A stretch of DNA of 64,000 nt from Flavobacteriales bacterium (GTDB lineage Bacteria; Bacteroidota; Bacteroidia; Flavobacteriales_F; PHOS-HE28). Position 1 is the first letter of the stretch; each line of letters begins with the position of its first letter. Shown here one piece after another: positions 10,162 through 26,631 of the stretch. The DNA is taken from positions 2,489,330 through 2,553,329 of the forward strand of contig JADJWA010000001.1 of NCBI GenBank assembly GCA_016716605.1, written 5' to 3'. The position numbers and the translations under genes are program-made. Under the pieces are notes generated by a model. That model searched no databases. It was not told the origin of the DNA and saw only the letters and a list, made by a program, of their open reading frames with translations.

Positions 10162-10169
10162 TATATTTG
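10162..10169 (+). promoter_or_regulatory. Bacteroidota-type -7 promoter box (TATATTTG) for the glycan locus
   Basis: It matches TAnnTTTG 52 nt upstream of the Wzc-like ATG 10221. I found no clear -33 TTTG. Confidence 0.4.
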
Positions 10170-10220
10170 GCCGCTTTCATCGGCGGTAAACCGCGCCCTT
10201 GCGCGTCCGCACCCCACTGG

Positions 10221-12638
10221 ATGTCCTCCCCCAAGGCTCAGCAGCGCAACAGCATCATCGATGCGAAGGATGTCCGTGCCTTCCTGCGCATAGCCACGAA
10301 GAACTGGTACTTCGTGGCGGTTGCCCTTGGCGTCTCGGCCGTGCTGGCCTACCTGTACAGCTACAAATTGCCGGATGTATATGGCGCTCGGACCCAGATC
10401 CTGCTGCGCGACCGCGAGGTGTACGACTACCAGACCCAGGTGTACAAGAGCATCGGGTACGTTGGCGCTTACAGCGACCTCGTGAACCAGAAGCGGGTGC
10501 TCACCAGCTTCGACCTTGTGAACCGGACCCTGGACAAGCTGGATTTCGACGTTTCGTACTTCATCGTCGGCAGATTCAAGACCACGCAGCATTACGGCAA
10601 CATGCCCTTCAAGGTCAATATGCAGGTGCTCTCCAAGCGCTTGTATGACCGGCCGATCGACCTGCGGATCCTGGATATCGACCGCTACGAGCTGAGCTAC
10701 GACAAGGATGGGGAGGTCGCTCGCAAGACCTTCCGGTTCAATGTGGATGAGCGCGATGATGATTTCGTCATCCGCGTGGACCGCTCGCCGTACATGACTG
10801 CGAAGAATCAGGCCCAGTTCGCGCAGACCGATTACCAATTCGTGCGGCATGAGCGCGCCCGGCAAGTCAATGAGCGCATCAGGTCCATCAAGGTCGAGAA
10901 CCAGGAGTTCACCACCATCCTTGAGGTGACCACGGAGGATGAGGTGTCTGAGCGCGCCAAGCTCTTCCTGGATTCGCTCTCCGCGGAGTACATCCGGCAG
11001 ACGCTGAAGAGCGAATACGAGATCAATGAGAATACGGTGAACTACATCGACCGCCAGCTCGCTGAGGTCACCGTGGTGCTCGACCAGCATGAGCGCGAAT
11101 TGCTCAGCTACAAGCAGGATGAGGACGTCATCGACATCGAGCGGGAGGAGAACCTCTTCTTCAGCGAGATGGTCACCTACGACAAGCAGCGGAGGCAGTT
11201 CGAGCTCGACATGCAGGCGCTTGATGCGTTGGAGGAGTACGTCCTCAATAGCGAGGACGAGCGCCTGCTGCCGCCGGCCACCTTCATCATCGAGGACATG
11301 TTCCTCCGCGAAATGCTCGGCAGCCTCGTTAACAAGCAGATGGAGCGCAATGCCATGCTCTACTCCGGCACTGCAGCCAACATGGCGGTGCAAGAGGTTG
11401 ATAGCACGCTTCGCCGGGACCGCGCCAGCCTGCTCACCTACATCAATAACGCCCGTTCCGCCAAGCAAGGGCGCATGGCCGATGTGCAATCACAGGTCGG
11501 CGACTATGAGCGCATGCTCCAGAAGCTCCCGAGGAAGCAGCGCGACATGATCAACATCCAGCGCCGCCTTGCCGTGAACGAGCGGCTCTACACGTTCATG
11601 CTCGAGAAGCGCGCCAGCACCATCATTGCCCGCGCGGGCATCGTGCCGCAGACCAAGGTGATCGAGAGCGCGCGCGGCTTGGGCGTGATCCGGCCGGACA
11701 AGGCCAAGATCCTGTACACCTTCATGCTCGGCGGGGTGGTGGTGGCCCTGCTGGTGGTCTTCATCCGCGTGATGTTCTACGACCGCATCGAGAACGCCGA
11801 CCAGCTCAAGGAACTCACACCGCTGCCCATCTACGGCGAGATCATCGCCAGCGAGAAAGCCGAACAGAACTACGTGGTGGTGGATAGCGACCCCAAGGCC
11901 GCCATCACCGAGAGCTTCCGGTCCGTGCGCACCAATCTGGAATACGTGCAGGGCAGGGGCGAAGGCGGCAAAGTGGTGATGGTGACCAGCTACCGGCCCA
12001 ACGAAGGGAAGACCTTCTGCTCGGTGAACCTCAGCGCGATCCTGGCCAAGGCCGGCAAGCGCGTGCTGCTGCTCGAACTCGACCTGCACAAGCCCAAGGT
12101 GGCCACGGGCCTCGGCATGAGCAGCACTACGGGCCTGAGCAATGTGCTCATCGGAAAGGTGCCCTGGCGCGACGCCGTGCTGCCCACCCAGTTCGAGAAT
12201 TTCCATGTGATGCTCAGCGGCCCCACCCCGCCCAATGCCTCGGAGCTCGTGCTCAGCAAGAAGCTGGAGGAATTGTTCGCTGAGGCCCGACATGAGTTTG
12301 ACTATGTGCTCGTCGATACCCCGCCCGTGGGCCTGATCACCGATGCATTGCTCATGATGCGCTATGCCGACTGCACCATGTTCGTGGTGAACACGCAGTT
12401 CGCCAGCAAGGACCACGTGAACAATGCCTTGGAAGTGCTGGCCACCAACCCTGGCGTGAATGCTGGCTTCATCCTCAACGGCGTCCGGATGAAGAAGAGC
12501 AAGTACTACTACAATACCAATTACGGCTACGGATACCGTTATGCGTACGGCTACGGCAGCGGCTATGGCTATGGATATGGCTATGGCCGCCGGAGCAAAG
12601 GCAAGGAGAAGAGCGATGACCGGAACCAATCCGCATGA
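10221..12638 (+). CDS. Polysaccharide co-polymerase / bacterial tyrosine (BY) kinase, Wzc/GumC-like
   Basis: N-terminal Wzz-like TM segment (WYFVAVALGVSAVLAYLY), a long coiled periplasmic region and a second TM (LGGVVVALLVVFI). Kinase Walker A is YRPNEGKTFCSVNLS, A' is LLLELDLHKP, B is DYVLVDTPPVG. The C-terminal Tyr cluster reads YYYNTNYGYGYRYAYGYGSGYGYGYGYG. Confidence 0.9.
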   Translation: MSSPKAQQRNSIIDAKDVRAFLRIATKNWYFVAVALGVSAVLAYLYSYKLPDVYGARTQILLRDREVYDYQTQVYKSIGYVGAYSDLVNQKRVLTSFDLVNRTLDKLDFDVSYFIVGRFKTTQHYGNMPFKVNMQVLSKRLYDRPIDLRILDIDRYELSYDKDGEVARKTFRFNVDERDDDFVIRVDRSPYMTAKNQAQFAQTDYQFVRHERARQVNERIRSIKVENQEFTTILEVTTEDEVSERAKLFLDSLSAEYIRQTLKSEYEINENTVNYIDRQLAEVTVVLDQHERELLSYKQDEDVIDIEREENLFFSEMVTYDKQRRQFELDMQALDALEEYVLNSEDERLLPPATFIIEDMFLREMLGSLVNKQMERNAMLYSGTAANMAVQEVDSTLRRDRASLLTYINNARSAKQGRMADVQSQVGDYERMLQKLPRKQRDMINIQRRLAVNERLYTFMLEKRASTIIARAGIVPQTKVIESARGLGVIRPDKAKILYTFMLGGVVVALLVVFIRVMFYDRIENADQLKELTPLPIYGEIIASEKAEQNYVVVDSDPKAAITESFRSVRTNLEYVQGRGEGGKVVMVTSYRPNEGKTFCSVNLSAILAKAGKRVLLLELDLHKPKVATGLGMSSTTGLSNVLIGKVPWRDAVLPTQFENFHVMLSGPTPPNASELVLSKKLEELFAEARHEFDYVLVDTPPVGLITDALLMMRYADCTMFVVNTQFASKDHVNNALEVLATNPGVNAGFILNGVRMKKSKYYYNTNYGYGYRYAYGYGSGYGYGYGYGRRSKGKEKSDDRNQSA

Positions 12639-13516
12639 CCATGGCCATGCGTGATGCCGGGGACGCGCAATCGGAGCAATGGGAGGTAGTGGTACGTCCC
12701 GAACACGGTTGGTGGAGCCTGGACCTGCGCGAGATCTGGCGCTATCGTGACCTGCTGCTGCTGCTGGTCCGGCGCGACTTGCTCGCGGTGTACAAGCAGA
12801 CCCTCATCGGCCCTGCATGGCAGGTCCTGCAACCGCTGCTCACTTCCATCATGTTCGCCGTGGTCTTCGGGATCATGGCGCGCATGGCGCCGTCCGGCAT
12901 ACCGCCCTTGCTCTTCTACCTGAGCGCAGTGGTGCCCTGGGGCTTCTTCAGCGGCGTGGTCACACGCACCTCCCAGACCCTGTTGAGCAACGCCGCCTTG
13001 ATGACCAAGGTGTACTTCCCACGGCTGGTGGCGCCCTTGGCCACGGTGCTCGCCACCGGATTCAATTTCGGGGTGCAGCTCACGGCTTATCTGGTGTTCG
13101 CGCTCATCTACGCGCTGCTCGGCAAGCACCCATGGCCCGTGGGGGCCGAGGCCGCCATGTTGCCCGCGCTCATCGCCATCATCGCCGTCATGGGCCTGGG
13201 CGTCGGCCTCGGGGTCAGCGCGCTCACCGCGCGCTACCGCGACTTCGGCCTCCTCATCGGCTTCGCTGTGCAACTGCTGATGTACGCCAGCCCGGTGATC
13301 TTCCCCCTCTCGATGACCGCGCCCGGCAGCAAGCTCCGCGCTGCCATCGAATTGAACCCGCTCACCCCGGTGATCGAGGGCTTCCGTGCAGCCCTGCTCG
13401 GAATGCCCATGGAATGGGGCACCCTTTGGTACAGCGCAGGGGTGGCAGTCGTTGTGCTGGTGCTCGGCCTGCTTCTCTTCCAGCGCGTAGAGCGCTCATT
13501 CGCTGATGTGATATGA
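12635..13516 (+). CDS. ABC-2 type polysaccharide export permease (Wzm-like)
   Basis: Six-TM ABC-2 layout with the typical N-terminal LREIWRYRDLLLLLVRRDLLAVYKQTLIGPAWQVLQPLL. ATGA overlaps on both sides. Confidence 0.85.
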   Translation: MTMAMRDAGDAQSEQWEVVVRPEHGWWSLDLREIWRYRDLLLLLVRRDLLAVYKQTLIGPAWQVLQPLLTSIMFAVVFGIMARMAPSGIPPLLFYLSAVVPWGFFSGVVTRTSQTLLSNAALMTKVYFPRLVAPLATVLATGFNFGVQLTAYLVFALIYALLGKHPWPVGAEAAMLPALIAIIAVMGLGVGLGVSALTARYRDFGLLIGFAVQLLMYASPVIFPLSMTAPGSKLRAAIELNPLTPVIEGFRAALLGMPMEWGTLWYSAGVAVVVLVLGLLLFQRVERSFADVI

Positions 13517-14775
13517 GCGGGCGAAGTGATTTGGTGATCCAGGTCGAGGACCTGCGCAAGCGATACAGGCTGGGCGTGATGGGCAGCGACCTGCTTGCCG
13601 ATGAGGCCGCTGCGCTCTGGGGCCGAATGCGCGGTCGGGCCAATGCGGGCAAGAAGCGGCGCGCGCCGGAGGGTGAGCAGCGCGTGGGCGATTACTTCTG
13701 GTCGCTGCAAGGCGTGTCCTTCGAGGTGAAGCGCGGCGAGATGCTCGGGATCATCGGGCGCAACGGCGCGGGCAAGAGCACGCTCCTCAAGCTCCTCTCC
13801 CGGATCTCCCTGCCTACCGAAGGCGTGATCCGCATGCGCGGCAAGGTGAGCAGCTTGCTCGAGGTGGGCACGGGCTTCCACCCGGAGCTCACCGGACGCG
13901 AGAACATCTACCTCAACGGCGCCATCCTTGGCATGCGCAAGGCCGAGATCAACCGCAAGCTCGACCAGATCATCGCCTTCAGCGGCATCGAGCATCACCT
14001 CGATTCACCGATCAAGCGGTACAGCAGCGGCATGAAAGTGCGCTTGGGCTTCAGCGTGGCCGCGCACCTGGATCCGGAGATCCTGATCGTCGATGAAGTG
14101 CTCGCCGTGGGCGATGCCGAGTTCCAGCGCAAATGCATCGGCAGCATGCGTGAAGTGGCGTCCAGCGGGCGCACCATCCTCTTCGTGAGCCACAACCTGG
14201 TGAGCCTGCAGAGCCTCTGCACGCGGGCCATCTGGCTTGAGAAAGGACGGCTCCGAGCGGAAGGCCCAACGGATGAACTGGTGCGTGATTACCTGCTTGT
14301 GAGCACGCATCAGCACAGTGCCCAGGAATGGGCCGAAGGGGAGGGCCCTGGAACGGAGGACCTTCGCCTGGTCTCCGTTCGCGCGATCAGCGATGATCCT
14401 TCGGGAGCCTTCACCACCGATTCGGCCGTCCGCATCGAGATCGAGCTGGACAACCTGGGCATCGCCGATGCCGACCTCGATATCCGGCTGCAAGTGCGCA
14501 CGGGCAACGATGCCATCGCCTTCAGCAACGACCTCTCTGCCAGCCAACCGGCCCGGTTCTGGAATCTTGGACGCAGCAAAGTGGCCTGCACCATACCCGC
14601 GCAGCTGCTCAACTCCAATACCTATCGTTACCACTTGGTCTTCTTCCGTCAAGGACGGGTCCTCTTCAAGGCGGAGGATGTGCTGAGCATCGATGTGCAC
14701 GAAGGCGCCCGTTCGGGCTCCACCTTCCGCAAGATGCCCGGTGCGGTGAGGCCCATGCTCACCTGGCAGCGGTGA
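13513..14775 (+). CDS. ABC polysaccharide export ATPase (Wzt-like) with a C-terminal extension of about 160 aa
   Basis: Walker A GRNGAGKSTLLKLL, signature YSSGMKVRLGF, Walker B ILIVDEVLAVGD. The extra C-terminal beta-rich domain reads LRLVSVRAISDD...RIEIELDN...TYRYHLVFF. Confidence 0.9.
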   Translation: MSGRSDLVIQVEDLRKRYRLGVMGSDLLADEAAALWGRMRGRANAGKKRRAPEGEQRVGDYFWSLQGVSFEVKRGEMLGIIGRNGAGKSTLLKLLSRISLPTEGVIRMRGKVSSLLEVGTGFHPELTGRENIYLNGAILGMRKAEINRKLDQIIAFSGIEHHLDSPIKRYSSGMKVRLGFSVAAHLDPEILIVDEVLAVGDAEFQRKCIGSMREVASSGRTILFVSHNLVSLQSLCTRAIWLEKGRLRAEGPTDELVRDYLLVSTHQHSAQEWAEGEGPGTEDLRLVSVRAISDDPSGAFTTDSAVRIEIELDNLGIADADLDIRLQVRTGNDAIAFSNDLSASQPARFWNLGRSKVACTIPAQLLNSNTYRYHLVFFRQGRVLFKAEDVLSIDVHEGARSGSTFRKMPGAVRPMLTWQR

Positions 14776-15617
14776 TGGCGGCCATGCTCGGCAAAGCGCT
14801 GTTGACGATCACGCGGCCATTGCAGCCGCTGATGCCGCGCATGTCGCCGAAGCTGATCATCATCGGTGCCCAGAAAGCCGGTACCACGACACTGTTCGAC
14901 CTGCTGAGCCAGCATCCGAAGGTGATTCCTCCAGCCGTGAAGGAGATTGACTTCTTCAGCAGCGATGAACGGTACGGGGCAGGCCTTACCGCGTATTGGA
15001 AGAGTTTCCCGCGCAGGCCCGTGGCCATGAGCAGGCACATCACCCTTGAAGCATCGCCCAGCTACCTCATGTCGCCGGTGGCGGCGCAACGCATCGCACA
15101 GCACCTGCCGAAGGCCTTGTGCCTGGCAGTGCTCCGCGATCCCGTGTCCAGGGCCTACTCCGCGTGGAACATGTACCGCCAGTTCAAAGGCGGCAAGCAC
15201 CACCGCTTCCACGATCCAAGGACCTTTGAGCAGGCCGTTGCCGATGAACTTGAAGGCAAGCCATGCTACGCGCATCATGCCTATCTGGCCAACAGCACCT
15301 ACGCGCCACAAGTGCAGCGCTTCATCGACCATATCGGAGCAAGCGCATTGCTCGTGCGAAGTTTCCATGAACTCACCCGTGATCCGCAGGCCCTCGTGAA
15401 CGATGTGCTTACCCGGCTGGGGATCGAGACTTTCCCCGCAGGCCATCCGGCATTCGCCACCCGCAGCAATGCACGTGCGTATCCGTCGGCTATTCCTGCG
15501 GACCTCGCCGCTCTGCTGCATGCGCATTTCGAGCCTGACCTTCGCGCCTTGGAACGCACGGTCGGTCATGCCTTGGACATCGTGGATGCGGCGCCACAAC
15601 AAGACCCGAAGCCGTAG
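14775..15617 (+). CDS. Sulfotransferase (Sulfotransfer_1-like)
   Basis: 5'-PSB loop IIIGAQKAGTTTLFDLL and 3'-PB motif VLRDPVSRAYSAW. The start is ambiguous (GTG 14772, ATG 14775, or an internal Met). Confidence 0.85.
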   Translation: MAAMLGKALLTITRPLQPLMPRMSPKLIIIGAQKAGTTTLFDLLSQHPKVIPPAVKEIDFFSSDERYGAGLTAYWKSFPRRPVAMSRHITLEASPSYLMSPVAAQRIAQHLPKALCLAVLRDPVSRAYSAWNMYRQFKGGKHHRFHDPRTFEQAVADELEGKPCYAHHAYLANSTYAPQVQRFIDHIGASALLVRSFHELTRDPQALVNDVLTRLGIETFPAGHPAFATRSNARAYPSAIPADLAALLHAHFEPDLRALERTVGHALDIVDAAPQQDPKP

Positions 15618-15623
15618 GGGCGC

Positions 15624-16577
15624 ATGAGCACGGCCCGTTACCACCCGATCCTGGATCCGTCGAGACTGGTCTTCATCGTGGGTTCACCACGCAGCGGAAC
15701 CACATGGCTGAGCCGCATGCTGGGCGATCACCCGCAGGTCGCAGCGCTGGATCATGAGCTCACCTTGTTCTCAGCCTACCTCGCGCCGGTCCTCAGCGCA
15801 TGGTCAAAGGAAGCCGGGCGCTTGGAGCGAACGCAACGGCCCTTCGGCATGCCAGCGCTCTTCTCCAACGAAGAGTTCATGAGCGCTTTGCATGAAGTTG
15901 CCGCCCAGGTCTATGCTCGCGTGCAGGCCCGCAGGCCCGGCGCCACGCTCATCCTCGACAAGCATCCGGCTTACGTGCGGCATCTCTCCGCGATCGCGGC
16001 GCTGATGCCGGGCAGCAGGTGCATCCATCTTGTCCGCGATGGGCGCGCTGCCATTTCCAGCATGCTTGCCGCTCCCGACCTCATGGGGCATTCGGGCACT
16101 TCAGTGCAAGCCGCTGCACAAGAATGGGCACAGAGCACTGCGATGGCGCAAGTCCACGGCGCCGGGTTCGGCCCCCGCTTCCGCACCGTGCGCTACGAGG
16201 AACTGGTATCCGGAACACCCGGCCAACTGGCGGCGCTATTCGCATTTCTTGGGATCGACAACAATGAAGCGCTTTGCGGGTCCATCGCTGCGAATCACCA
16301 TCGCGAGAAGGGCCTTGTTGCGCAAGGGAAGGGCGATGCATCGGTTGTTCGGCGGACCTGGCGGCAGCACTTCACCCTGATCGATCGCTATTGGATCGAT
16401 GCCATCGCCGGGGCCCAGCTGCGCCATTGGGGCTACGCCAAGGAGGGCTGGTGGGCAATCGCTTCGGCCGATCGCCTGCGTATGGCCCTGTTCCCGCTGC
16501 GCGTGCGCCTTGGGGAGTCGCTTCGGGCGCTTAAGCGCATCTGGTCCTCGCCGATCACGCGCCAGGTGAGGCCCTGA
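15624..16577 (+). CDS. Sulfotransferase family protein
   Basis: 5'-PSB-like loop FIVGSPRSGTTWLSRML and 3'-PB-like HLVRDGRAAISSM. Confidence 0.8.
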   Translation: MSTARYHPILDPSRLVFIVGSPRSGTTWLSRMLGDHPQVAALDHELTLFSAYLAPVLSAWSKEAGRLERTQRPFGMPALFSNEEFMSALHEVAAQVYARVQARRPGATLILDKHPAYVRHLSAIAALMPGSRCIHLVRDGRAAISSMLAAPDLMGHSGTSVQAAAQEWAQSTAMAQVHGAGFGPRFRTVRYEELVSGTPGQLAALFAFLGIDNNEALCGSIAANHHREKGLVAQGKGDASVVRRTWRQHFTLIDRYWIDAIAGAQLRHWGYAKEGWWAIASADRLRMALFPLRVRLGESLRALKRIWSSPITRQVRP

Positions 16578-16609
16578 TCCAGAGGCGGACGGTAACTTGC
16601 ACGACCCCC

Positions 16610-17737
16610 ATGGCGGACACCCCGATCTACGTCACGCGCACCTTCCTTCCTCCGCAGGAAGAATACATGGCCTTGCTCCATGAGGCCTACGAGAGCCACG
16701 TGCTCACCAACAACGGCCCCTTGCACCGCCGCTTGGAAGGCGCCCTGCGCGAACGGCTCGAAGCACCGCATCTGTTGCTGATGGCCAATGGCACGCTCGC
16801 GATCCAATTGGCTATGCGTGCGCTCGGCGTGAAAGGCGAGGTGATCACCACGCCCTTCAGTTACGTGGCCACCACCAGCGCGATCCTGTGGGAAGGGTGC
16901 GCGCCGGTGTTCGTGGACATCAAGCCCGACACACTCTGCATCGACCCGGAACGGATCGAAGCGGCGATCACGCCCCGCACTTCGGCAATCCTCGCAACGC
17001 ATGTGTACGGCATCCCCTGCGACGTGGAGGCCATCGATGCCATCGCCAAGCGCCACGGCCTGAAGGTGATCTACGATGCCGCCCACGCCTTCGATGTGCG
17101 CTACAAGGGCAGGCCCATCACTTCCTACGGTGATGCCAGCACCTTGAGCTTCCATGCCACCAAGCTCTTCCACACCGTTGAAGGCGGTGCTACCATCGTG
17201 CATACGCCCGAGCTGGAGAAGGCCACCCGCTTGCTGCGCAGCTTCGGCCATGTGAACGACGACCACTTCACGCTGGGCATGAACGCCAAGATGAGCGAGG
17301 TGCACGCCGCCATGGGCCTGGCCGTGCTGCCGCACATGCCTGAGGTGCTGCGCAGCCGGGCGGCGCTTGCTGAGGTGTACTCGGAGGAACTCATCGATGC
17401 CGACATCACGCGCCCGGTGGTTCCGGCCGGCACCGAATACAACCACGCCTACTTCCCGATCCTGCTCCGTGATGGTGCCAAGCGGCAAGGCGTGATCGAG
17501 GCCTTGGCGGCGCATGGCGTCCACGCGCGCCGCTACTTCTACCCTTCGTTGAACACGCTGCCTTATGTCGAGCGAACGGCCATGCCGGTCTCAGAGGACG
17601 CCGCCGACCGCGCGATCTGCCTGCCTTTCTATCCGGGATTGGAGCATTCGGATGCGGAGCGCATCGCCAAGCTCATCCGTCAAGTGGCTGGAAGGCCGCA
17701 AGCAACCACCGCTTCGCCTGCACGGGTGAGGCATTGA
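16610..17737 (+). CDS. DegT/DnrJ/EryC1/StrS family sugar aminotransferase
   Basis: Typical N-terminus IYVTRTFLPPQEEY...VLTNNGP. PLP-lysine context LSFHATKLFHTVEGG. C-terminal ICLPFYPGL. Confidence 0.9.
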   Translation: MADTPIYVTRTFLPPQEEYMALLHEAYESHVLTNNGPLHRRLEGALRERLEAPHLLLMANGTLAIQLAMRALGVKGEVITTPFSYVATTSAILWEGCAPVFVDIKPDTLCIDPERIEAAITPRTSAILATHVYGIPCDVEAIDAIAKRHGLKVIYDAAHAFDVRYKGRPITSYGDASTLSFHATKLFHTVEGGATIVHTPELEKATRLLRSFGHVNDDHFTLGMNAKMSEVHAAMGLAVLPHMPEVLRSRAALAEVYSEELIDADITRPVVPAGTEYNHAYFPILLRDGAKRQGVIEALAAHGVHARRYFYPSLNTLPYVERTAMPVSEDAADRAICLPFYPGLEHSDAERIAKLIRQVAGRPQATTASPARVRH

Positions 17738-17739
17738 CC

Positions 17740-18612
17740 ATGGATCCATACCTGCATTACGATCTGCTCCGGCGCACGCATCGCGCGCTCGCGCTCAAGG
17801 CCATCATCCAGGAACGGATCAAGCCCGGCATGCGCGTGCTCGATGCCGGATGCGGCAGCGGAATCCTGAGCATCTGGGCAGGGCAGGCCGGTGCCGAAGT
17901 GGTCGGCGTGGACCTTGCGGACATCTCCTTGGCGCGTATGCTAGTCGCGGAGAACGGCTTGGCCGACCGCGTGCGGATCATGCAGGGCGACCTCTTCGAA
18001 GTGGATCTCGGCGAACAGCGCTTCGATGCCTTGCTGGCCATGGTGTACCTGAACGACCCGCGCCGCGACGAGGATCGGCCGAAGCTCGTCCACGGCCTCA
18101 AGCGATTCCTGAAGCCCGGAGCGCTCATGGTGCCCGACCGGGTGCGCTATACCGTTGCGGCGCTCGATTGGCCCGCTCAGCGGAGCCCGGCGCGCTGGCA
18201 AAGGGTGGACGACGGCATCGCTGAGTTCGAGCGGATCTATTCCATGCGCATGGGATCATTCAAAGGGCTGCTGCGACAGCGGCCGAACAAATCCGTGTTC
18301 CCGCACCGCGGCCCCGATGGTCTCATCGACCTGTCGGAAGCGAAACGTCTTACGCCGCAGCAGGAGATCATCGTGCAGCAGCTCCGTGACGAGCCTCGAT
18401 CATTCCCGGACCGCATCGTGCTCAGCACGCAGCAGGCCGGTGAACTCAATACGCTGCTCTTCGAGCAGGAACTCTTGTTCATGGACACCCTCATCTTCCG
18501 CAACCAGTCGATCAGTTGGGTCGATCCACCGGTGCAGGTGAGCGCCGCGCAGAGCGTGGAAGCCATGCTTGATGGACGATGGCGCACGGATAACCTGATC
18601 CACGCGCATTGA
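17740..18612 (+). CDS. Class I SAM-dependent methyltransferase (layout reminiscent of PRMT-type enzymes)
   Basis: Motif I VLDAGCGSGILSIWAGQAGAEVVGVD, post-I RVRIMQGDLFEV, ALLAMVYLND. A C-terminal domain of about 150 aa follows the Rossmann fold. ATG 17740 is preferred over TTG 17734. Confidence 0.75.
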   Translation: MDPYLHYDLLRRTHRALALKAIIQERIKPGMRVLDAGCGSGILSIWAGQAGAEVVGVDLADISLARMLVAENGLADRVRIMQGDLFEVDLGEQRFDALLAMVYLNDPRRDEDRPKLVHGLKRFLKPGALMVPDRVRYTVAALDWPAQRSPARWQRVDDGIAEFERIYSMRMGSFKGLLRQRPNKSVFPHRGPDGLIDLSEAKRLTPQQEIIVQQLRDEPRSFPDRIVLSTQQAGELNTLLFEQELLFMDTLIFRNQSISWVDPPVQVSAAQSVEAMLDGRWRTDNLIHAH

Positions 18613-19847
18613 TGCCGATCGCTGACGACTTGGGCCGTGATCGCCTGTGCCAGCTCCTCTCAGGGCACGGCGATTCCATCTACCTGCTCGATACCGAAGC
18701 CTACCGTCGCAACATCCGCGAGTTCTTCACGCAGTTCCGCAAACGCTATCCGCGCATCGGCCTCGGCCATTCATACAAGACCAACTACATCCCGCAGCTC
18801 TGCAAGGCCGCCTATGCGGAAGGAGCGTATGCCGAAGTGGTCTCACGCATGGAGTTCGACATGGCCTTGCGTTTCGGTGCGGCGCCCGAACGAATCATTC
18901 TCAACGGGCCGGTGAAGGATGACGCACTGCTGCGCGATGCCCTGCTCGCTGGGTGCATGGTGAATGTGGACAGCGAAGGTGAGGCGGTGCGCGTAATGGC
19001 CATCGCCGACGCGCATCCGGAAAAGCAGATCGCCTTTGGATTGCGGATGAACCTGCCCATGGATGGACGCCCGCGCTCGCGCTTCGGGATCGATGTGGAT
19101 GCCCGAGGCTTGCCGGACCTGATCGCTGCCATACGCGAGCGGAGCAACCTCGCGATCGAAGGGATCCATTGCCACATCGGCGGAGATCGGAGCGCCGCGA
19201 GCTACGCCGAGCGCACCGATCGCATGATAAAAGCGTCGAAGTGGATCTTCCACCGCACGAAGCCCCGCTACATAGACGTAGGCGGTGGGCTGGCGGGTCG
19301 CATGCCCGACGAATTGAAGTCGCAGCTGGCCAAAGAGCCGCCCAGCCTCGATTATTATGCTGAGGCCATAGCAGGTTCCTTCTCCAGTTCATTCCCCGAT
19401 GATGGTCCCGAGTTGATCGTGGAGCCCGGCATGGGCATCCTGGCCGATGTGGTCTGGTTCGCCTGCGAAGTGGCCAGCACCAAGCGCATCGGGGATCAGC
19501 TGCATGCCATCGTCACGGGCAGCATCTACAACCTGAAGCCCACGCTCAATTCCTTCGACCTGCCCTTCACGGTGCTGCCTAAGCCCGGCGTGGCGCGCGA
19601 GAAGGGGGAGTGGTGCGTGAGCGGCTACACCTGCATGGAGATCGATGTGATCCACAAGGGCTGGAAGGGCGCGCTCGCCGAAGGTGACATCCTGCTCTTC
19701 GGCAACGCAGGCGCCTATACGGTGGTGCTCAAGCCGCCCTTCATCAAGGCAGCGCCCGCCATCGTTGAGCTGCACGCCGACGGGACAGCCACGTGCGTGA
19801 AGGCTGCCGAGACGCTCGATGACGTGCTGAGCACTTACCGCTGGTAG
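18612..19847 (+). CDS. PLP-dependent decarboxylase, Orn/DAP/Arg decarboxylase (fold-type III) family
   Basis: PLP-lysine context GLGHSYKTNYIP, HCHIGG, and a C-terminal beta-barrel segment CVSGYTCMEIDV...GAYTVVLKPPF. TGATG overlap with the upstream gene. Confidence 0.85.
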   Translation: MPIADDLGRDRLCQLLSGHGDSIYLLDTEAYRRNIREFFTQFRKRYPRIGLGHSYKTNYIPQLCKAAYAEGAYAEVVSRMEFDMALRFGAAPERIILNGPVKDDALLRDALLAGCMVNVDSEGEAVRVMAIADAHPEKQIAFGLRMNLPMDGRPRSRFGIDVDARGLPDLIAAIRERSNLAIEGIHCHIGGDRSAASYAERTDRMIKASKWIFHRTKPRYIDVGGGLAGRMPDELKSQLAKEPPSLDYYAEAIAGSFSSSFPDDGPELIVEPGMGILADVVWFACEVASTKRIGDQLHAIVTGSIYNLKPTLNSFDLPFTVLPKPGVAREKGEWCVSGYTCMEIDVIHKGWKGALAEGDILLFGNAGAYTVVLKPPFIKAAPAIVELHADGTATCVKAAETLDDVLSTYRW

Positions 19848-19874
19848 TCGGAACGCGCGCCGCATCTTCGCGGC

Positions 19875-20897
19875 ATGAACCTGCTCTTCTCCTGCATCGG
19901 CAAGCGCGGCTACATGGCGCGCCTGTTCCGTGAGCAGCTCGGGCCAGATGATCGCATCATCGGCACCAGCAACACGCGCTGGACGCCCGGCTTCAACGCC
20001 TGCGACAAGGGCGTGCTCATGCCCGACCTCAATTCGCCGGAGTACATCCCCGCCGTGCTCGAGCTCTGCAGGCGCGAGCGCATCGATGGCCTGCTCTCCT
20101 TCTTCGACATGGATGTGCACCGGCTCAGCAAGCACGTCCACGAGTTCGAGGCGATCGGCGTGAAGTGCTTCATCCCGCGCGCTGAGGCCGCTGATATCTG
20201 CTTCGACAAGTGGCGCACCTTCCAATTCCTGCGCGCCAATGGATTCGAGACCGCAGAGACCTGGCTCGACCTTGTGAGCGTGAAGCGCGCCATGGAAGAA
20301 GGCGCACTCGCTTTCCCGGTGTACGTGAAGCCGCGTTCCGGATTCGGCAGCCGCAACACCTTCAAGGCCCGCAATTGGAAGGAATTGGAGGTCTTCTTCG
20401 ACCTGGAGCCTGACATGATCGTGCAGGAAACGCTGGGCGGCGACGCCTACGACTTCGATATCCTCAACGACCTGAATGGCCGCGCCATCAGCGTGGTGTG
20501 CTGGCGGAAATCGCTCAGCCGCATGGGCGAGACCGAGCAGGCCGTCACGGTGCACGATGAGCAGATCACGGAGGTCGGCCTGCGTCTGGCCAATACCCTC
20601 GGCTTCGTTGGCCCATTGGATGCCGATCTCTTCCTCTGGAACGGCAAGGTTTACGTGCTTGAGATCAACCTGCGCTTCGGCGGCGGTTATCCCACCTCGC
20701 ACCTGGCGGGCGCTGCCTTCCCGAAAGCAATCATGCAGATGATCACCGGCGAGCCGGTCACCATCAAGCAAGGCGATTACAAGGCAGGCGTGGTGATGAT
20801 GAAGGAGCTGCACATCCTCGGCGGCGAGGAGCAGTCGTTCTTCCAGGAGCGTATCCATGTGGATGAAAGCCTGCGGACGCCATCCGTTTCCCACTGA
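19875..20897 (+). CDS. ATP-grasp domain ligase
   Basis: FPVYVKPRSGFGSRNTFKA, MIVQETLGGDAYDFDIL, YVLEINLRFGGGYP (ATP-grasp B and C subdomain motifs). Confidence 0.85.
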   Translation: MNLLFSCIGKRGYMARLFREQLGPDDRIIGTSNTRWTPGFNACDKGVLMPDLNSPEYIPAVLELCRRERIDGLLSFFDMDVHRLSKHVHEFEAIGVKCFIPRAEAADICFDKWRTFQFLRANGFETAETWLDLVSVKRAMEEGALAFPVYVKPRSGFGSRNTFKARNWKELEVFFDLEPDMIVQETLGGDAYDFDILNDLNGRAISVVCWRKSLSRMGETEQAVTVHDEQITEVGLRLANTLGFVGPLDADLFLWNGKVYVLEINLRFGGGYPTSHLAGAAFPKAIMQMITGEPVTIKQGDYKAGVVMMKELHILGGEEQSFFQERIHVDESLRTPSVSH

Positions 20898-20899
20898 AC

Positions 20900-21913
20900 A
20901 TGGACCCCATCCGCACGGAGGCCTTCCAGCGCAACGACAGCCTTGAGGCGCTGCTGCGCGAGTTGAATGATGCGCTTGGCGGTGCGGAGGAACGGTTGGC
21001 GGCCTTGCCGGATGAGCCGCCCTACCCCACGATCCTCATCATCGGCGCGCCGCGCAGCGGCACCACCTTGCTCATGCAATGGCTGGCGGCCAGCGGGCTG
21101 GTGGCCTTCCCGAGCAATCTCCTCTCGCGATTCTACCAAGCACCTTACCTCGGCGCGCGCATCCAGCAGCTGATTGCCGATCCGCGCTTCAATTACAAGG
21201 ACGAGCTCAGTGGCTTGTTGGGCGCTCCTGCGGAATTCGCGAGCGAAGTGGGCAAGACCAAAGGCGCGCTTCAGCCCAACGAGTTCTGGTACTTCTGGCG
21301 GCGCTTCATACCGAACGTCGATCCGGAATGGATCACGCCCGAGCAGGAGGACTTGATCGATGGCGCTGGCTTCCGTCGCGGCATCGCGCACATCCAGCAT
21401 GCTTTCGGAAAGCCATTCGCCACCAAGGGAATCATCCTCCAATACAATCTGGAGGCGCTGCGACGGGCCTTGGGCAAGGTGATCTTCGTGCATACCCGGC
21501 GGAATGCGTTCTTCAACACGCAATCGCTCCTGCAGGCCAGGGTGAAGTACCATGGCAGCATCGACACCTGGTTCAGCGTGAAGCCGCGCGAGTACGAAGA
21601 GCTGCGCAAGCGTGATCCGGTGGAGCAAGTGGCCGGTCAGGTGATCCTGACGCAGCGCCATATCGAGGAACAATTGGCCAGCATGCCAGCGGAGCATGTG
21701 CTCACCATTGACCACGAAGCGTTCTGCGCCGACCCCGCGGCTTTCCATGCGGCGCTTGGTGCGAAGCTCAAGCAATGGGGCTGCGAATGGCCGGATGCAT
21801 ACACGGGCCCTGCGCGTTTCGAGGTCAGTGATCGCGTCCGAGTGGATGATGCCATGCGGGCGCGGATCATGGAGGCGTGCAAATGGCTCGAGGGCGCTTA
21901 TCCGAGCATCTGA
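20900..21913 (+). CDS. Sulfotransferase family protein
   Basis: 5'-PSB-like loop ILIIGAPRSGTTLLMQWL and 3'-PB-like FVHTRRNAFFNTQSLL. Confidence 0.75.
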   Translation: MDPIRTEAFQRNDSLEALLRELNDALGGAEERLAALPDEPPYPTILIIGAPRSGTTLLMQWLAASGLVAFPSNLLSRFYQAPYLGARIQQLIADPRFNYKDELSGLLGAPAEFASEVGKTKGALQPNEFWYFWRRFIPNVDPEWITPEQEDLIDGAGFRRGIAHIQHAFGKPFATKGIILQYNLEALRRALGKVIFVHTRRNAFFNTQSLLQARVKYHGSIDTWFSVKPREYEELRKRDPVEQVAGQVILTQRHIEEQLASMPAEHVLTIDHEAFCADPAAFHAALGAKLKQWGCEWPDAYTGPARFEVSDRVRVDDAMRARIMEACKWLEGAYPSI

Positions 21914-21919
21914 TCGATC

Positions 21920-22909
21920 ATGGATGCGATCGATGGCCGTTCCGCCGAGGCCCCATTGGTCTCCATCTCCATCACGACATACCAGCACGCCGAGTACCTC
22001 GCGCAATGCCTCGACAGCATCCTCGCGCAGCAATGCCCATTCGCTTACGAGGTGCTCTTGGGCGAGGACGATAGTTCGGATGGCACGCGCGCCATTGCCC
22101 AGCGCTATGCCGCGGAGCACCCGGACAGGATCCGCCTCTTCCTGCACCGGCGCGATCAGATGATCCGCATCGATGGGCGGCCTACGGGAAGGCACAACTT
22201 CCTCAACAACCTGCGCCACGCGCGCGGCCGCTACTTATGCCACATCGACGGCGACGACTACTGGCCCGATCCGCAGCGGCTGCGCATCATGGTGGAGAAG
22301 ATGGAGGCGGAGCCCGACCTGGGACTGGCCTTCCACAATGCGATGAATGTGTGGGACGATGGACGGGAGCAGCCCTACTTCGATCCCGCCAAGGCCAAGC
22401 CGCGCTTCACCCTCGAAGAGCTCACCGAGGCCAACTTCATCCCGACCTCCGGTGTGATTTGGCGCTGGGAGGGAATGCAGGCGTTCCCGGAAGCCTTTCG
22501 CACCGCGCCCTTCGGCGATTGGGCGCTCAACGTGCATTTCGCGATGAAGGGCCCGATCGGTTACGTTGACCGGATCATGAGCGTGCGCCGGGTGCACGAA
22601 GGCGGGATCATGAGCGTGATGGGCGAGTTGCGCACCATGCGCGGCATCGCGCTGGCGTATGAAGTGATGCATGGGCAGGCCGGCGACCGGCTCGCGCCAG
22701 CCGCCCTGGTCCGCTGGGCCAAGCAGATCACCGATGGCTTCGATCGCGCGATGCACGCCGGCGATCGCGAGAACGCCGCATGGTTCCTTGCGCATGCCGG
22801 GCGCGTGCCGCATGGCCATATCAGCCTCCGCCTTCGCGCGCGCTGGTGGTTGCAACTGCACTTTCCGAGGCTGATGCGCGCCTATGGTGCTTGGCGCAAG
22901 GGTCACTGA
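21920..22909 (+). CDS. Family 2 glycosyltransferase
   Basis: VSISITTYQHAEYLAQCLDSILAQ, EVLLGEDDSSDGT, DXD-type HIDGDDYW. Confidence 0.85.
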   Translation: MDAIDGRSAEAPLVSISITTYQHAEYLAQCLDSILAQQCPFAYEVLLGEDDSSDGTRAIAQRYAAEHPDRIRLFLHRRDQMIRIDGRPTGRHNFLNNLRHARGRYLCHIDGDDYWPDPQRLRIMVEKMEAEPDLGLAFHNAMNVWDDGREQPYFDPAKAKPRFTLEELTEANFIPTSGVIWRWEGMQAFPEAFRTAPFGDWALNVHFAMKGPIGYVDRIMSVRRVHEGGIMSVMGELRTMRGIALAYEVMHGQAGDRLAPAALVRWAKQITDGFDRAMHAGDRENAAWFLAHAGRVPHGHISLRLRARWWLQLHFPRLMRAYGAWRKGH

Positions 22910-22935
22910 ATGGTGCTTCGGGACTCCGCAGGCGA

Positions 22936-23844
22936 TCAAAGGCCGAGGGTATCGGCGAGTATCGCGGTGAGCTTGCGGTTGCCCGCAGCGCTCACGTGAT
23001 CGCTGTTGCTGAAGTCCCCTTCGAGGAAGCGCGGGTCATCGGACAGGTCGTGGTAGCTGACATGGCCGTGCCGGTGCGCGAGATCGCGGCCGATGGCCCG
23101 GGCCAACCGCAGCTGGCGATCATCCACTTCCTTGAGGTAGGCTGGATGCATCGGTGGGAAGAACAGGTGGACCCGCGCATCGTGCAAGGCCGCGAGCGCG
23201 ATGATGGCTTCCAAGTGGTTCAGATTCCGCAGGATCCGTTCATGGTCGCTGCAGGTATGCCGGTCAGCGGTCTTCTTGGCGTCGGCAAGGAGATCCAATC
23301 CGGGCTTCGGCCGGTTGAATGCGCCACCGAGATCCCCGCAGCTGCGGTTGTCCAAGCCATGCAATAGGTGATCGCGCAGCATGGCCAGCAGCACCGGCTT
23401 GCGGTTGTTGAGCAGTTCGAAGCGATGGTCGAGCCGGGAGGCTTGCTCGGGCATGTCCATGTGGATCACATAGTTCTTCACGCGCCACGGCTCGCGGCCA
23501 TGCTCGATGCTGGCGCCGATGGAGGCATAGGAGACCGGGATGATGATGGACCGCAGTTGGGGCAGATGACCGATGCACTGCTCCGCGATCGCGAGATCGC
23601 GCCGATGGTCCTGACTGATGTTCGCGGCATTGTAGGCAGGGCTGCTGAATCCCCGGGGATCAATGCCGTTGTATGCATGCGAGTTGCCCAGGATCAGCAG
23701 CTCGATGCTGTCGCCGCGCTGGGTCAGGAGGTCGTGCGTGTACCGGTAATCGTTCGGGATCCTCCGCAAGGCGATCTCGGTGAGCGCTATCACCACCAGC
23801 AGGGGGAGCAGGAATAGCGAGGCACGGCGCAGGTACTGCTTCAT
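22936..23844 (-). CDS. Membrane-anchored SGNH/DltD/AlgX-like putative acyl-transfer partner of the MBOAT
   Basis: N-terminal TM segment (LFLLPLLVVIALTEIAL). LILGNSHA replaces the GDS(L) block, and a distal NSDHVSAAG resembles a DxxH block. It lies 3 nt downstream of the MBOAT gene on the same strand. The family call is tentative. Confidence 0.55.
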   Translation of the reverse strand: MKQYLRRASLFLLPLLVVIALTEIALRRIPNDYRYTHDLLTQRGDSIELLILGNSHAYNGIDPRGFSSPAYNAANISQDHRRDLAIAEQCIGHLPQLRSIIIPVSYASIGASIEHGREPWRVKNYVIHMDMPEQASRLDHRFELLNNRKPVLLAMLRDHLLHGLDNRSCGDLGGAFNRPKPGLDLLADAKKTADRHTCSDHERILRNLNHLEAIIALAALHDARVHLFFPPMHPAYLKEVDDRQLRLARAIGRDLAHRHGHVSYHDLSDDPRFLEGDFSNSDHVSAAGNRKLTAILADTLGL

Positions 23845-23847
23845 GCT

Positions 23848-25299
23848 TCAGAACTGGAAGTAGATGAAGGAGACCTCACGGCCGGTGTGCACGAGCGACG
23901 CGATCGCGAGCGCATAGTACACGGCCCACCGGATGCTGCGCGGAAGCGTACGTTCAATCGCCGCCAGCCCATGCGCGTGGCTTCGCTGCAACCATTCGAC
24001 GGCAAGCATCGCCCAAACGAAAGGCATGGGCCCACGGGTGAGAAGGTCCCGGGCAAGCAGCGCCAATTGGCCGGGGTGGGTGGCCAGGCCTGTCGGGATC
24101 CGTTGAACGATCTCCAATGCTGTGGATAGGTCAGGGGCGCGGAAGAAGATCCACGCCAAATCCACCAGGGCGAAGGTGATGATCATGCGCAGTGCATCGC
24201 CCGGGGAGGGTAGCCAGCCTTCGGGCGCGGACAATCGTTTGCGGTTGGTTCCCTGCAGGAGCAGCGGAAGGAAGAACAAGGCATGGAGCGCGCCCCATGC
24301 CACGAAGGTGTAGTTGGCGCCATGCCAGAAGCCGCTCACCAGGAAGATGATGAAGGTGTTTCGAACGCGGTTGCTCATCGACCCTTGGCTCCCGCCCAAG
24401 GGGATGTAGAGGTAGTCGCGGAACCAGGTGCTCAGCGAGATGTGCCACCGTCGCCAGAACTCAGCGATGTCCCGTGCGAAATAGGGGTACGCGAAATTCC
24501 GCATCAGCGAGATGCCGAAGAGCCGGGCCGCTCCGATGGCGATGTCGGAGTACCCGCTGAAATCACCGTAGATCTGGAAGGCGAAGAGGATGGCGGCGAA
24601 GGCGAGCTCACCGCCGCCGCTCGCTGCATGGTCGTTGAAGATCCGGTCAACGATCGGGGCGCATTGGTCGGCGATCACGATCTTCTTGAAGAAGCCCCAG
24701 AGCATCTGCCGGGAGCCATCGATGGCCTGGGTGTAATCGAACACCCGCCTCTTCTGGAATTGCGGCAACAAGGCTGTGCCGCGCTCGATGGGGCCCGCCA
24801 CCAGCTGCGGGAAGAACATCAGGTATGCGCCGAAGGCCACAGGGTCACGCTCGGCGCGCAGCTGCCCGCGGTACACATCGATGGTGTAGCTCAGGCTCTG
24901 GAAGGTGTAGAAGCTGATTCCCACCGGCAGCACGATGCCCAGCGTGGTTGGGCTGAATGGCTGTCCGAAAAGGGTGAAGGCATCGCTGAAGGCCGTGATG
25001 AAGAAATCCCAGTACTTGAAGAAGCCCAATGAGCCCAGGTTGCCGATCAGGCTTGCTGCGAGCCATTGCTTCCGGCCACGAGGGCTTTTCGCGTGCGCGA
25101 TGCCGAGTGCGGCCACGTAATCCAAGGCGCCGCTGAAGAACACCAGCCCAAGGAAGCGCCAGTCCCACCAGCCGTAGAAGAACATGCTGGCCGCCAGCAG
25201 CCAGAGGTTGCCCAAGCGGTGCGAGCGCCGATCAAGGGGCCAGAACAGCAGCAGCACCAAAGGCAGGAATGCCGCGAATTCGATCGAGTTGAACAGCAT
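23848..25299 (-). CDS. MBOAT family O-acyltransferase (AlgI/DltB-like)
   Basis: MLFNSIEFAAFLPLVLLLFW start, WRRWHISLSTWFRDYLYIPLGGS, and the conserved His context LVSGFWHGANYTF. Confidence 0.9.
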   Translation of the reverse strand: MLFNSIEFAAFLPLVLLLFWPLDRRSHRLGNLWLLAASMFFYGWWDWRFLGLVFFSGALDYVAALGIAHAKSPRGRKQWLAASLIGNLGSLGFFKYWDFFITAFSDAFTLFGQPFSPTTLGIVLPVGISFYTFQSLSYTIDVYRGQLRAERDPVAFGAYLMFFPQLVAGPIERGTALLPQFQKRRVFDYTQAIDGSRQMLWGFFKKIVIADQCAPIVDRIFNDHAASGGGELAFAAILFAFQIYGDFSGYSDIAIGAARLFGISLMRNFAYPYFARDIAEFWRRWHISLSTWFRDYLYIPLGGSQGSMSNRVRNTFIIFLVSGFWHGANYTFVAWGALHALFFLPLLLQGTNRKRLSAPEGWLPSPGDALRMIITFALVDLAWIFFRAPDLSTALEIVQRIPTGLATHPGQLALLARDLLTRGPMPFVWAMLAVEWLQRSHAHGLAAIERTLPRSIRWAVYYALAIASLVHTGREVSFIYFQF

Positions 25300-25403
25300 G
25301 CCTGGTCGCCGCTACAGCGGCGCGAAGAAAGCGAGCCGGGATACACCGGCTCAAACGGACGCAGCATGGAGATCGGTTGGATGCGCACCTTTGCCGACCT
25401 GAA

Positions 25404-26519: not shown

Positions 26520-26631
26520 ACGCCCGGATGAGTGCCAACTTTATGAGCCCGCAGTCCGCATTGGATGGTTCTCCGTTCAACTGCGTGGTCCGTGGCCATC
26601 AGCGCTGCGTAGGTCCTGAAAGCGAAATGGC

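Follow-up and report, generated by a model that had tools for sequence, protein, structure and literature searches.

The stretch analysed here (the window) comprises 64,000 nucleotides of a Flavobacteriales bacterium (GCA_016716605.1, contig JADJWA010000001.1, positions 2,489,330 to 2,553,329), and the element of interest is a run of four plus-strand genes at 17734-21913. They encode a two-domain S-adenosylmethionine (SAM) methyltransferase of the protein arginine methyltransferase (PRMT) fold (MT, 17734-18612; Methyltransf_25, Methyltransf_11 and PrmA matches), a fold-type III pyridoxal phosphate (PLP) decarboxylase (DC, 18612-19847, the open reading frame (ORF) starting at 18609 or 18612; PF02784 and PF00278), an ATP-grasp ligase of the PRK12767/2PN1 type (AG, 19875-20897; PylC-like_N, ATP-grasp_3 and ATPgrasp_Ter) and a sulfotransferase of the 3'-phosphoadenosine 5'-phosphosulfate (PAPS) type (ST3, the sulfotransferase downstream of AG, 20900-21913; PF13469). 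On the same strand, just upstream of MT, lies a DegT/DesI-like PLP sugar aminotransferase (DegT, 16610-17737; PF01041, 324 bits). I show that MT-DC-AG-ST3 is a conserved, horizontally mobile unit within a Wzm/Wzt-exported glycan operon, and argue that its probable role is to decorate an amino sugar in a sulfated surface polysaccharide with an amino-acid side chain that has been trimmed and methylated. The aminotransferase and the first three cassette genes had been described within 16610-20897 by a first-pass annotation of the DNA, and the families it named are borne out by Pfam, PDB and Foldseek comparisons.

The cassette is part of a series of 11 plus-strand genes (10167-22909) in which neighbours either share 4 nt or lie no more than 32 nt apart, in the order Wzc-like tyrosine kinase/co-polymerase, Wzm, Wzt, two sulfotransferases, DegT, MT, DC, AG, ST3 and a family 2 glycosyltransferase (GT2). 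The Wzm permease, the Wzt ATPase (420 aa, with a long C-terminal extension) and the sulfotransferases ST1 and ST2 occupy 12635-16577 of the plus strand and match ABC2_membrane, ABC_tran and Sulfotransfer_1/3; GT2 follows the cassette at 21920-22909, on the same strand (PF00535). The junctions, taken straight from the nucleotide sequence, agree with the overlapping stop and start codons and the single short gap described in the first pass: the TGA of the aminotransferase (17735-17737) overlaps a TTG at 17734, the other candidate start of MT being an ATG at 17740; in the TGATG at 18610-18614 the ATG of DC (18612) overlaps the MT stop; and 27 nt (19848-19874) separate DC from AG. Between the AG stop and the ST3 gene there are 2 nt only. 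Translational coupling of the genes is upheld.

The boundaries of the cassette become visible in a sister genome (locus L092; GCA_016712535.1, JADJQW010000002.1, 2337-10014), which was compared with window positions 16610-21913. Flank proteins of the two genomes are 93-98% identical, the genes for SDF, bestrophin and SDR proteins reaching 97-98%; the values are 95% for ST1, 97% for ST2, 89% for DegT, 93% and 85% for two family 4 glycosyltransferases (GT4a and GT4b), 74% for GT2 and 61% for ST3. Where the window has MT-DC-AG-ST3, the sister carries, between DegT and GT2, genes for WbqC, an unknown 315-aa protein, a GNAT protein, an APH-type kinase, a methyltransferase, a GT2 and an ST3-like protein. 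The swapped unit therefore corresponds to the genes at 17734-21913, with the aminotransferase belonging to the conserved backbone of the locus, and the four-gene cassette of the first pass (aminotransferase, MT, DC and AG) has to be redrawn accordingly. In other words, MT-DC-AG-ST3 is allelic to a canonical GNAT N-acyltransferase module behind the same aminotransferase.

To follow the cassette across genomes, 88 loci with an AG relative were gathered and their neighbours tallied, genes being called by choosing ORFs on conservation; the adjacency counts are limited to the 75 loci with enough upstream flank. DC lies directly upstream of AG, in the same orientation, in 31 of the 75, and a DegT gene is found within 10 kb in 39. 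Where AG identity to the window protein is at least 45% (28 loci), DC is directly upstream in 19, ST3 directly downstream in 13, MT present in 10 and DegT within 10 kb in 21; the corresponding figures are 11, 0, 1 and 6 for the 16 loci at 35-45%, and 1, 0, 0 and 12 for the 31 loci below 35%. The gene sets are nested, since from the 31 DC-AG pairs one passes to 13 loci with ST3 and to 11 with MT, every MT locus having both DC and ST3. Such nesting fits a base reaction performed by AG and DC, with elaboration added later.

The order MT-DC-AG-ST3 recurs in Flavobacteriales metagenome-assembled genomes (MAGs; L002, L006 and L007), in a Thermodesulfobacteriota MAG (L004) and in two metagenome genomes (L095 and L096). 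A Pirellulaceae MAG (L009) shows all four genes in this order by tblastn, MT being absent from its gene call; in Luteitalea (L018), of the Acidobacteriota, a phosphoglycosyl transferase (PGT) gene stands between MT and DC; and in the gammaproteobacterium HdN1 (L091) DC-AG-ST3 form one operon with MT divergent. A GT2 gene directly follows ST3 in L001 and L002 as well, and stands one gene further on in L004. The association of DegT, MT, DC and AG on which the first-pass annotation had built is thus found outside this genome too, at no fewer than seven further loci spread over several phyla, with DegT varying in position. Most cassette loci sit between Wzm/Wzt or Wzx genes and glycosyltransferases. 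AG homologues at 50-96% identity are spread across phyla, and at least 519 AG relatives occur in contigs sampled at one genome per species; neither AG nor DC is present in any of 30 sampled relatives of the window's genome (itself 99.9% complete), 18 of them congeners. In the literature searched, no description of the MT-DC-AG-ST3 combination as a glycan-tailoring route was found. In long-read Flavobacteriales MAGs, MT or DC is split into short ORFs at L002 5865-6739, L005 8473-9412 and L007 7882-9051, these being either frameshifted pseudogenes or assembly errors.

Turning to the individual proteins, the nearest PDB entry to AG is 2pn1 (E 2.6e-44), which carries a generic name only, and in the PDB and the literature searched no function is assigned to the 2PN1/PRK12767 family. 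These 'carbamoyl phosphate synthase-like' proteins are the nearest family of AG, which nevertheless stays under the cut-offs of all five sub-models (NF009402-NF009406), scoring 256.7 against 316 (NF009404), 243.5 against 271, 208.5 against 390, 149.3 against 286 and 138 against 218. At E ≤0.01 its only Pfam matches are PylC-like_N, ATP-grasp_3 (PF02655, 49.7 bits), ATPgrasp_Ter and Dala_Dala_lig_C, and no TupA-like ATP-grasp match appears at that threshold. Residues K152, E263, N265 and R267 and a GGG motif are invariant in 21 homologues; they include the conserved ATP-grasp Lys and the Mg-binding Glu and Asn. AG is the predicted amide-bond former. At the distant end of the family (AG identity about 31%), the loci L050, L053, L060, L061, L064, L067, L070 and L082 share a recurrent arrangement of PglC-like PGT, ATP-grasp and HAD hydrolase genes, often with DegT and a PglF-like dehydratase, which suggests that a phosphorylated acid or amine is ligated and then loses its phosphate.

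DC matches PF02784 (Orn_Arg_deC_N, 86.9 bits) and PF00278 (Orn_DAP_Arg_deC, 26.3 bits), and keeps the catalytic motifs HSYKTN, HCHIGG, DVGGGL, TCME and GAYT (PLP Lys, HxH, GGG loop, Cys and Tyr), as do 27 AG-linked homologues. Its top NCBIfam match is the lysA model TIGR01048, and the model search, run on this genome and on the 30 relatives, found no lysA above cut-off in the genome itself, the sole other match being a SpeA-like arginine decarboxylase (C1:3052370-3053536); one might then suppose that DC is simply the cell's LysA, caught in a glycan operon by chance. This is extremely improbable. DC scores 126.7-127.6 bits against a cut-off of 297.9, whereas the true LysA proteins of congeners reach 372-404 bits. 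In LysA, the motifs EPGR, IRPxLY and CESGD bind the distal carboxylate and amine of diaminopimelate; at these sites the window protein reads EPGM, LKPTLN and CMEID, and the 27 AG-linked homologues read EPG[M/I/V], NxKPT (or NPLRS) and TCMEID, while a bona fide LysA encoded in L032 keeps EPGR, IRPALY and CESGD. Moreover, five congeners (G007, G008, G009, G011 and G013), two of them 99-100% complete, have no lysA and yet have neither DC nor AG, most other congeners possessing a LysA of 380-404 bits; the loss of lysA therefore appears to be a trait of the lineage, for which DC probably does not compensate. Together with the synteny of DC with AG across phyla, these observations led to rejection of the housekeeping identity. 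The first-pass annotation had named a firm grouping with LysA, with no other lysA in the genome, as grounds for refutation; the genome indeed holds no other lysA, but this does not refute, as DC is not LysA-like at its substrate residues and lysA is also missing from congeners that have no cassette. The absence of lysA from one sub-lineage of the genus could itself mean lysine auxotrophy or an unrecognised route.

Judged by these motifs and scores, DC is a member of a distinct AG-linked clade, which counts 487 clusters at 50% identity (E ≤1e-30). Its best PDB match is FslC (7kh2; E 7e-29, 104 bits, residues 13-388), with BtrK also matched at 44 bits, and it scores 108.4 bits on the FslC model NF041039, whose cut-off is 500. 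Members of the clade are fused to a PglC-type phosphoglycosyl transferase (P0410) and to a family 8 glycosyltransferase (GT8; P0471), and both fusions keep the clade motifs. Further fusions, among P0401, P0480 and P0101, join an HpcH/HpaI aldolase or DUF7916 to DC, and an ATP-grasp protein to WbqC.

As for MT, its best PDB sequence matches are PRMT1, PRMT6 and PRMT8, followed by the N-methyltransferases MitM, CypM, GenN and PEAMT. The AlphaFold model (pLDDT 93.2) aligns by Foldseek with PRMT6, PRMT3, PRMT7 and PRMT1 over its full length (about 300 columns, TM 0.62-0.72, probability 1.0) and displays a Rossmann domain plus a beta-barrel, as in PRMTs, so that the PRMT-like layout suspected in the first pass extends to the whole protein. 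The homologues form a tight family of about 55 full-length sequences, within which D108, R110, R111 and D112 are invariant or nearly so. By sequence reading, the counterpart of the PRMT double-E loop, which comes after strand 4, is AMVYLNDPRRDED, with acidic residues kept throughout the family and no Glu at the first E position. On its model, then, MT is a PRMT-fold enzyme, for which arginine methylation is not claimed; rather, it is predicted to N-methylate a side-chain amine, N-methylation being favoured over O-methylation because of the full PRMT fold and because the next sequence matches are N-methyltransferases. In L001 a sulfotransferase takes the position of MT, which suggests that MT and that sulfotransferase act on one and the same free group.

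This last locus also bears on a quite different assignment, in which MT would be a 3-amino-3-carboxypropyl transferase like MccD, DC would generate an aminopropyl group in the manner of the N-terminal domain of MccE, and AG would act separately. SAM-dependent MccD and the group IV PLP decarboxylase domain of MccE do install an aminopropyl group in this way (PMC11350588), and the TGATG junction couples MT and DC translationally. About 20 loci, however, hold a DC-AG pair without any MT homologue, hence MT is not needed to make the substrate of DC; these pairs, the sulfotransferase at the MT position in L001, the full PRMT fold of MT and its best matches to PRMT, PrmA and N-methyltransferases render such an assignment very unlikely.

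Two proteins remain, the aminotransferase and ST3. The aminotransferase has DesI as its best PDB match (2po3, E 5.6e-62) and remains below the cut-off of the DesI equivalog TIGR04427 (278 bits against 650); its PLP lysine motif SFHATK is present, whereas dehydratase members of the DegT family have a His where the PLP Lys stands. The acceptor amine is predicted to be its product, and it belongs to the backbone of the locus, outside the mobile cassette. ST3 matches PF13469 at 44 bits (cut-off 27), and its PAPS (5'-phosphosulfate) loop PRSGTT, R201 and S209 are invariant among homologues. A search of the PDB with the ST3 sequence gave no matches; its model (pLDDT 90.8) finds as best folds the mycobacterial Stf1 and Stf9, TPST and the CurM sulfotransferase.

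From these parts the following pathway may be proposed. The DesI-like aminotransferase would make a 4-amino-6-deoxy sugar. AG would convert a carboxyl of an amino acid to an acyl phosphate and couple it to the amine of the sugar through an amide bond. Since a PLP decarboxylase requires that the alpha-amino acid end be free, the donor must be joined via another group, and the carboxyl used by AG would most likely be the side-chain carboxyl of Glu or Asp. DC would then remove the alpha-carboxyl, which is left free after linkage, to give an omega-aminoacyl arm of the 4-aminobutanoyl or beta-alanyl type, whose terminal amine would be N-methylated by MT. ST3 and the two upstream sulfotransferases would add sulfate to that residue or to the polymer, and the resulting glycan would carry cationic groups as well as sulfate. 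From the genes and their neighbours I infer what the acceptor and the donor acid are, in which order the steps run, that methylation is on N and not on O, and where sulfate is added; the pathway as a whole, with AG N-acylating the amine made by DegT, DC trimming, MT methylating and ST3 sulfating, is put forward tentatively, with a confidence that falls somewhat short of even.

Several features of the AG loci favour an acceptor that is a sugar amine. In the sister genome the allele of the cassette is a GNAT module, which follows the same aminotransferase; DegT is found no further than 10 kb away in the 21 of 28 loci mentioned above, and in L028 a polysaccharide de-N-acetylase occupies its place. 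AG is often accompanied by PglF-like dehydratases and PglC-like PGTs, and PGT genes adjoin DC-AG in several loci. Along the same line, where AG identity is 35-55% the partners of the ligase are instead a PALP enzyme and a GNAT protein, which is the enzyme set expected for N-acetyl-aminoacyl amino sugars, a well-known class of compounds. NDP-sugar dehydrogenases, on which the amidation of a uronic acid would depend, were searched for in 84 AG loci with the window genome's own two Ugd-type proteins as queries; they occur in none of the cassette loci and in only 5 of the 84, all with AG identity of at most 35%.

These same features bear on a second route, the Campylobacter-like logic of the first-pass annotation, in which AG would amidate a carboxylate of the glycan (uronic, ulosonic or pyruvyl). 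DC would either make a free amine first or trim a diamino acid linked via its side-chain amine, as in the FslA/FslC pair, and MT would methylate the pendant amine. AG matches the N-domain family of PylC, an enzyme that uses the epsilon-amine of lysine as nucleophile, and FslC, the closest solved relative of DC, takes an ornithine which is amide-linked by its side-chain amine to a carboxylate. The precedent invoked in the first pass is correct: in Campylobacter jejuni HS:2 the TupA-like ATP-grasp Cj1438C amidates the glucuronic acid of the capsule with a phospho-amine (ethanolamine-P or serinol-P), PLP enzymes supply the amine partner, and a HAD phosphatase then acts (Cj1438C, Cj1437, Cj1436, Cj1435; PMC11800379). 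The resemblance to the cassette lies in an ATP-grasp amide on a glycan sugar with PLP enzymes providing the nitrogen partner. It is not complete, for AG has no TupA-like match and the window locus has neither a dehydrogenase nor a HAD gene (none in 10167-27789); besides, the PLP enzymes of HS:2 are of the class I/II aminotransferase fold, and not DegT or fold-type III. Two NDP-sugar dehydrogenases are encoded in the genome, outside the glycan locus, and distant relatives of AG pair with a HAD phosphatase, as Cj1435 is, an arrangement that recalls the carboxylate-amidation logic of Campylobacter and counts against the sugar amine. The scarcity of dehydrogenases among AG loci, the GNAT module that replaces the cassette behind the same DegT in the sister and the de-N-acetylase standing for DegT in L028 speak the other way, and amidation of a carboxylate, although the strongest of the rivals, is on the whole unlikely. 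The general idea of an amide decoration formed by the ATP-grasp enzyme holds, with uronic acid amidation being the weaker version of it and N-acylation of an amino sugar the stronger.

To return to the N-acylation of a sugar amine, the first-pass annotation had supposed that DC makes a free amine before ligation; action on an already-linked amino acid is the likelier course, on account of the relatives FslC and BtrK, the clade-wide replacement of the residues with which LysA contacts the distal carboxylate, and the fusions of DC to Bac_transf and GT8 domains. The FslC enzyme of Francisella (rhizoferrin pathway) is an N-citrylornithine decarboxylase, its substrate being an amino acid already in amide linkage, and DC shares with it a C-M motif after the catalytic Cys region. 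The two also differ, as FslC keeps the Arg of ELGR where the DC clade has Met, Ile or Val, and FslC serves a siderophore pathway with a synthetase of the nonribosomal-peptide-synthetase-independent siderophore (NIS) type as its partner, here replaced by an ATP-grasp ligase; no gene of the operon matched the NIS synthetase family in Pfam scans.

A second case in point is butirosin, whose BtrJ is an ATP-grasp enzyme. In the pairs BtrJ/K, CtaD/F and FlvN/O, Glu or Asp is first tethered through its side chain, and its decarboxylation to 4-aminobutanoate (GABA) or beta-alanine follows (PMC11350588). The substrate of BtrK is Glu-S-ACP, a Glu tethered to a carrier protein. As in the cassette, a ligase and a fold-type III PLP decarboxylase are paired, and in these systems the GABA or beta-alanyl group ends up as an N-acyl substituent of an amino sugar. 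Unlike in the cassette, their tether is an acyl carrier protein (such as BtrI) and a separate acyltransferase is needed, and the context is an aminoglycoside cluster rather than a polysaccharide locus. A carrier-protein tether was considered for the cassette as well and rejected, because there is no room for its gene: none is present within 16610-21913, where gaps are at most 32 nt and every ORF is assigned.

A third comparison, by function only, concerns PglB2 of Neisseria, an ATP-grasp protein fused to a PGT, whose ATP-grasp part stands in for an acetyltransferase, with the result that a glyceramido group instead of acetyl is put on a 4-amino-trideoxyhexose (PMC11130364). Likewise, the ATP-grasp module described here is allelic to a GNAT module, PGT genes adjoin DC-AG and one PGT-DC fusion exists. 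PglB2 differs in having no decarboxylase, methyltransferase or sulfotransferase partner, and in serving protein O-glycosylation. On these comparisons, the parts of the cassette are of known kinds (glycan ATP-grasp amides, decarboxylation of tethered substrates, PAPS sulfotransferases), whereas their combination as a portable cassette with a PRMT-fold enzyme was not met with in the literature searched.

Besides the HAD neighbours already mentioned, a number of observations weigh against the proposed N-acylation pathway. No glycan with an N-(omega-aminoacyl) group of the predicted kind was found reported in the literature searched (aminobutanoyl and beta-alanyl glycans), and decarboxylation could also have preceded ligation, which would yield the same product. 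The sugar scaffold is not fixed, for DegT identity among the cassette loci is just 31-70% and DegT is missing from L091 and L095. In L092 and L094, relatives of ST3 (45-61% identity) are found where AG and DC are missing, so that ST3 may act on the sugar backbone and not on the side chain. The main exception to the glycan context is HdN1 (L091, 4295-9966 of FP929140.1), where the PRMT-fold MT comes after an HD-GYP-like gene that diverges from DC-AG-ST3, and where genes for glycosyltransferases, aminotransferases and exporters are all missing over a distance of 9 kb. A DC-AG pair in L003 is found among riboflavin genes with no obvious glycan genes, and several pairs in Acidobacteria and Planctomycetes, also devoid of obvious glycan genes, have a sigma factor or a HEAT-repeat protein next to them.

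Loci such as these would be expected if the product were a free small molecule only loosely associated with glycans, for instance a methylated, sulfated amine or pseudo-dipeptide acting as an osmolyte or a signal; the unit standing alone beside the HD-GYP-type gene in HdN1, the riboflavin genes around the L003 pair and the sigma factor and HEAT-repeat neighbours are all compatible with it. In the window, by contrast, the cassette lies well inside a glycan operon of 11 genes, with overlaps of 4 nt, most cassette loci are placed among export and glycosyltransferase genes, the DC clade is fused to a phosphoglycosyl transferase and to GT8, and the sister genome has a sugar N-acyl module in exchange. 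A free product is accordingly of low probability, lower than that of carboxylate amidation.

The rest of the glycan locus (10167-27789) holds neither an initiating phosphoglycosyl transferase nor a nucleotide-sugar dehydratase. PGT-like genes are located elsewhere in the genome (C1:3126567, C1:1808868 and C2:338155), which also encodes RmlB, a Gmd-like protein and a PglF-like 4,6-dehydratase outside the locus; RmlB and the Ugd-type genes lie near C1:457771-467121. DUF4924 and OstA_2 genes, typical of Bacteroidota, are found upstream and, like the flank proteins 93-98% identical to those of a Flavobacteriales MAG, indicate a Bacteroidota genome. On the minus strand, 22936-25299 contain an MBOAT gene and a gene for a 302-aa partner; both are absent from L092, in which GT2 runs straight into the GT4 genes, and the pair amounts to a second strain-specific insertion. 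A similar pair occurs in L040 and L045, and MBOAT homologues in L006 and L007.

A bolder formulation may also be considered, namely that MT-DC-AG-ST3 is a widespread exchanged module in which PLP-dependent decarboxylation takes place on a sugar-linked amino acid and is followed by PRMT-type N-methylation, placing a cationic, possibly quaternary, arm beside sulfate esters and giving rise to zwitterionic sulfated polysaccharides. Though possible, it is doubtful in this full form. If true, it would be the first on-glycan decarboxylation of an amino acid, and would provide the first small-molecule or glycan substrate of a bacterial PRMT-fold enzyme.

To sum up, the cassette would offer a function for the orphan 2PN1/PRK12767 family and for bacterial PRMT-fold proteins, on the scale of the DC clusters and AG relatives counted above. 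The charge and antigenicity of bacterial surface glycans, and the way in which phages and the immune system recognise them, depend on unusual N-acyl groups of amino sugars and on sulfate esters, and the cassette offers a testable route to them which uses the tether-then-decarboxylate logic of antibiotic and siderophore pathways. The window genome and its sister form a natural allelic pair in which this glycan chemistry may be compared.

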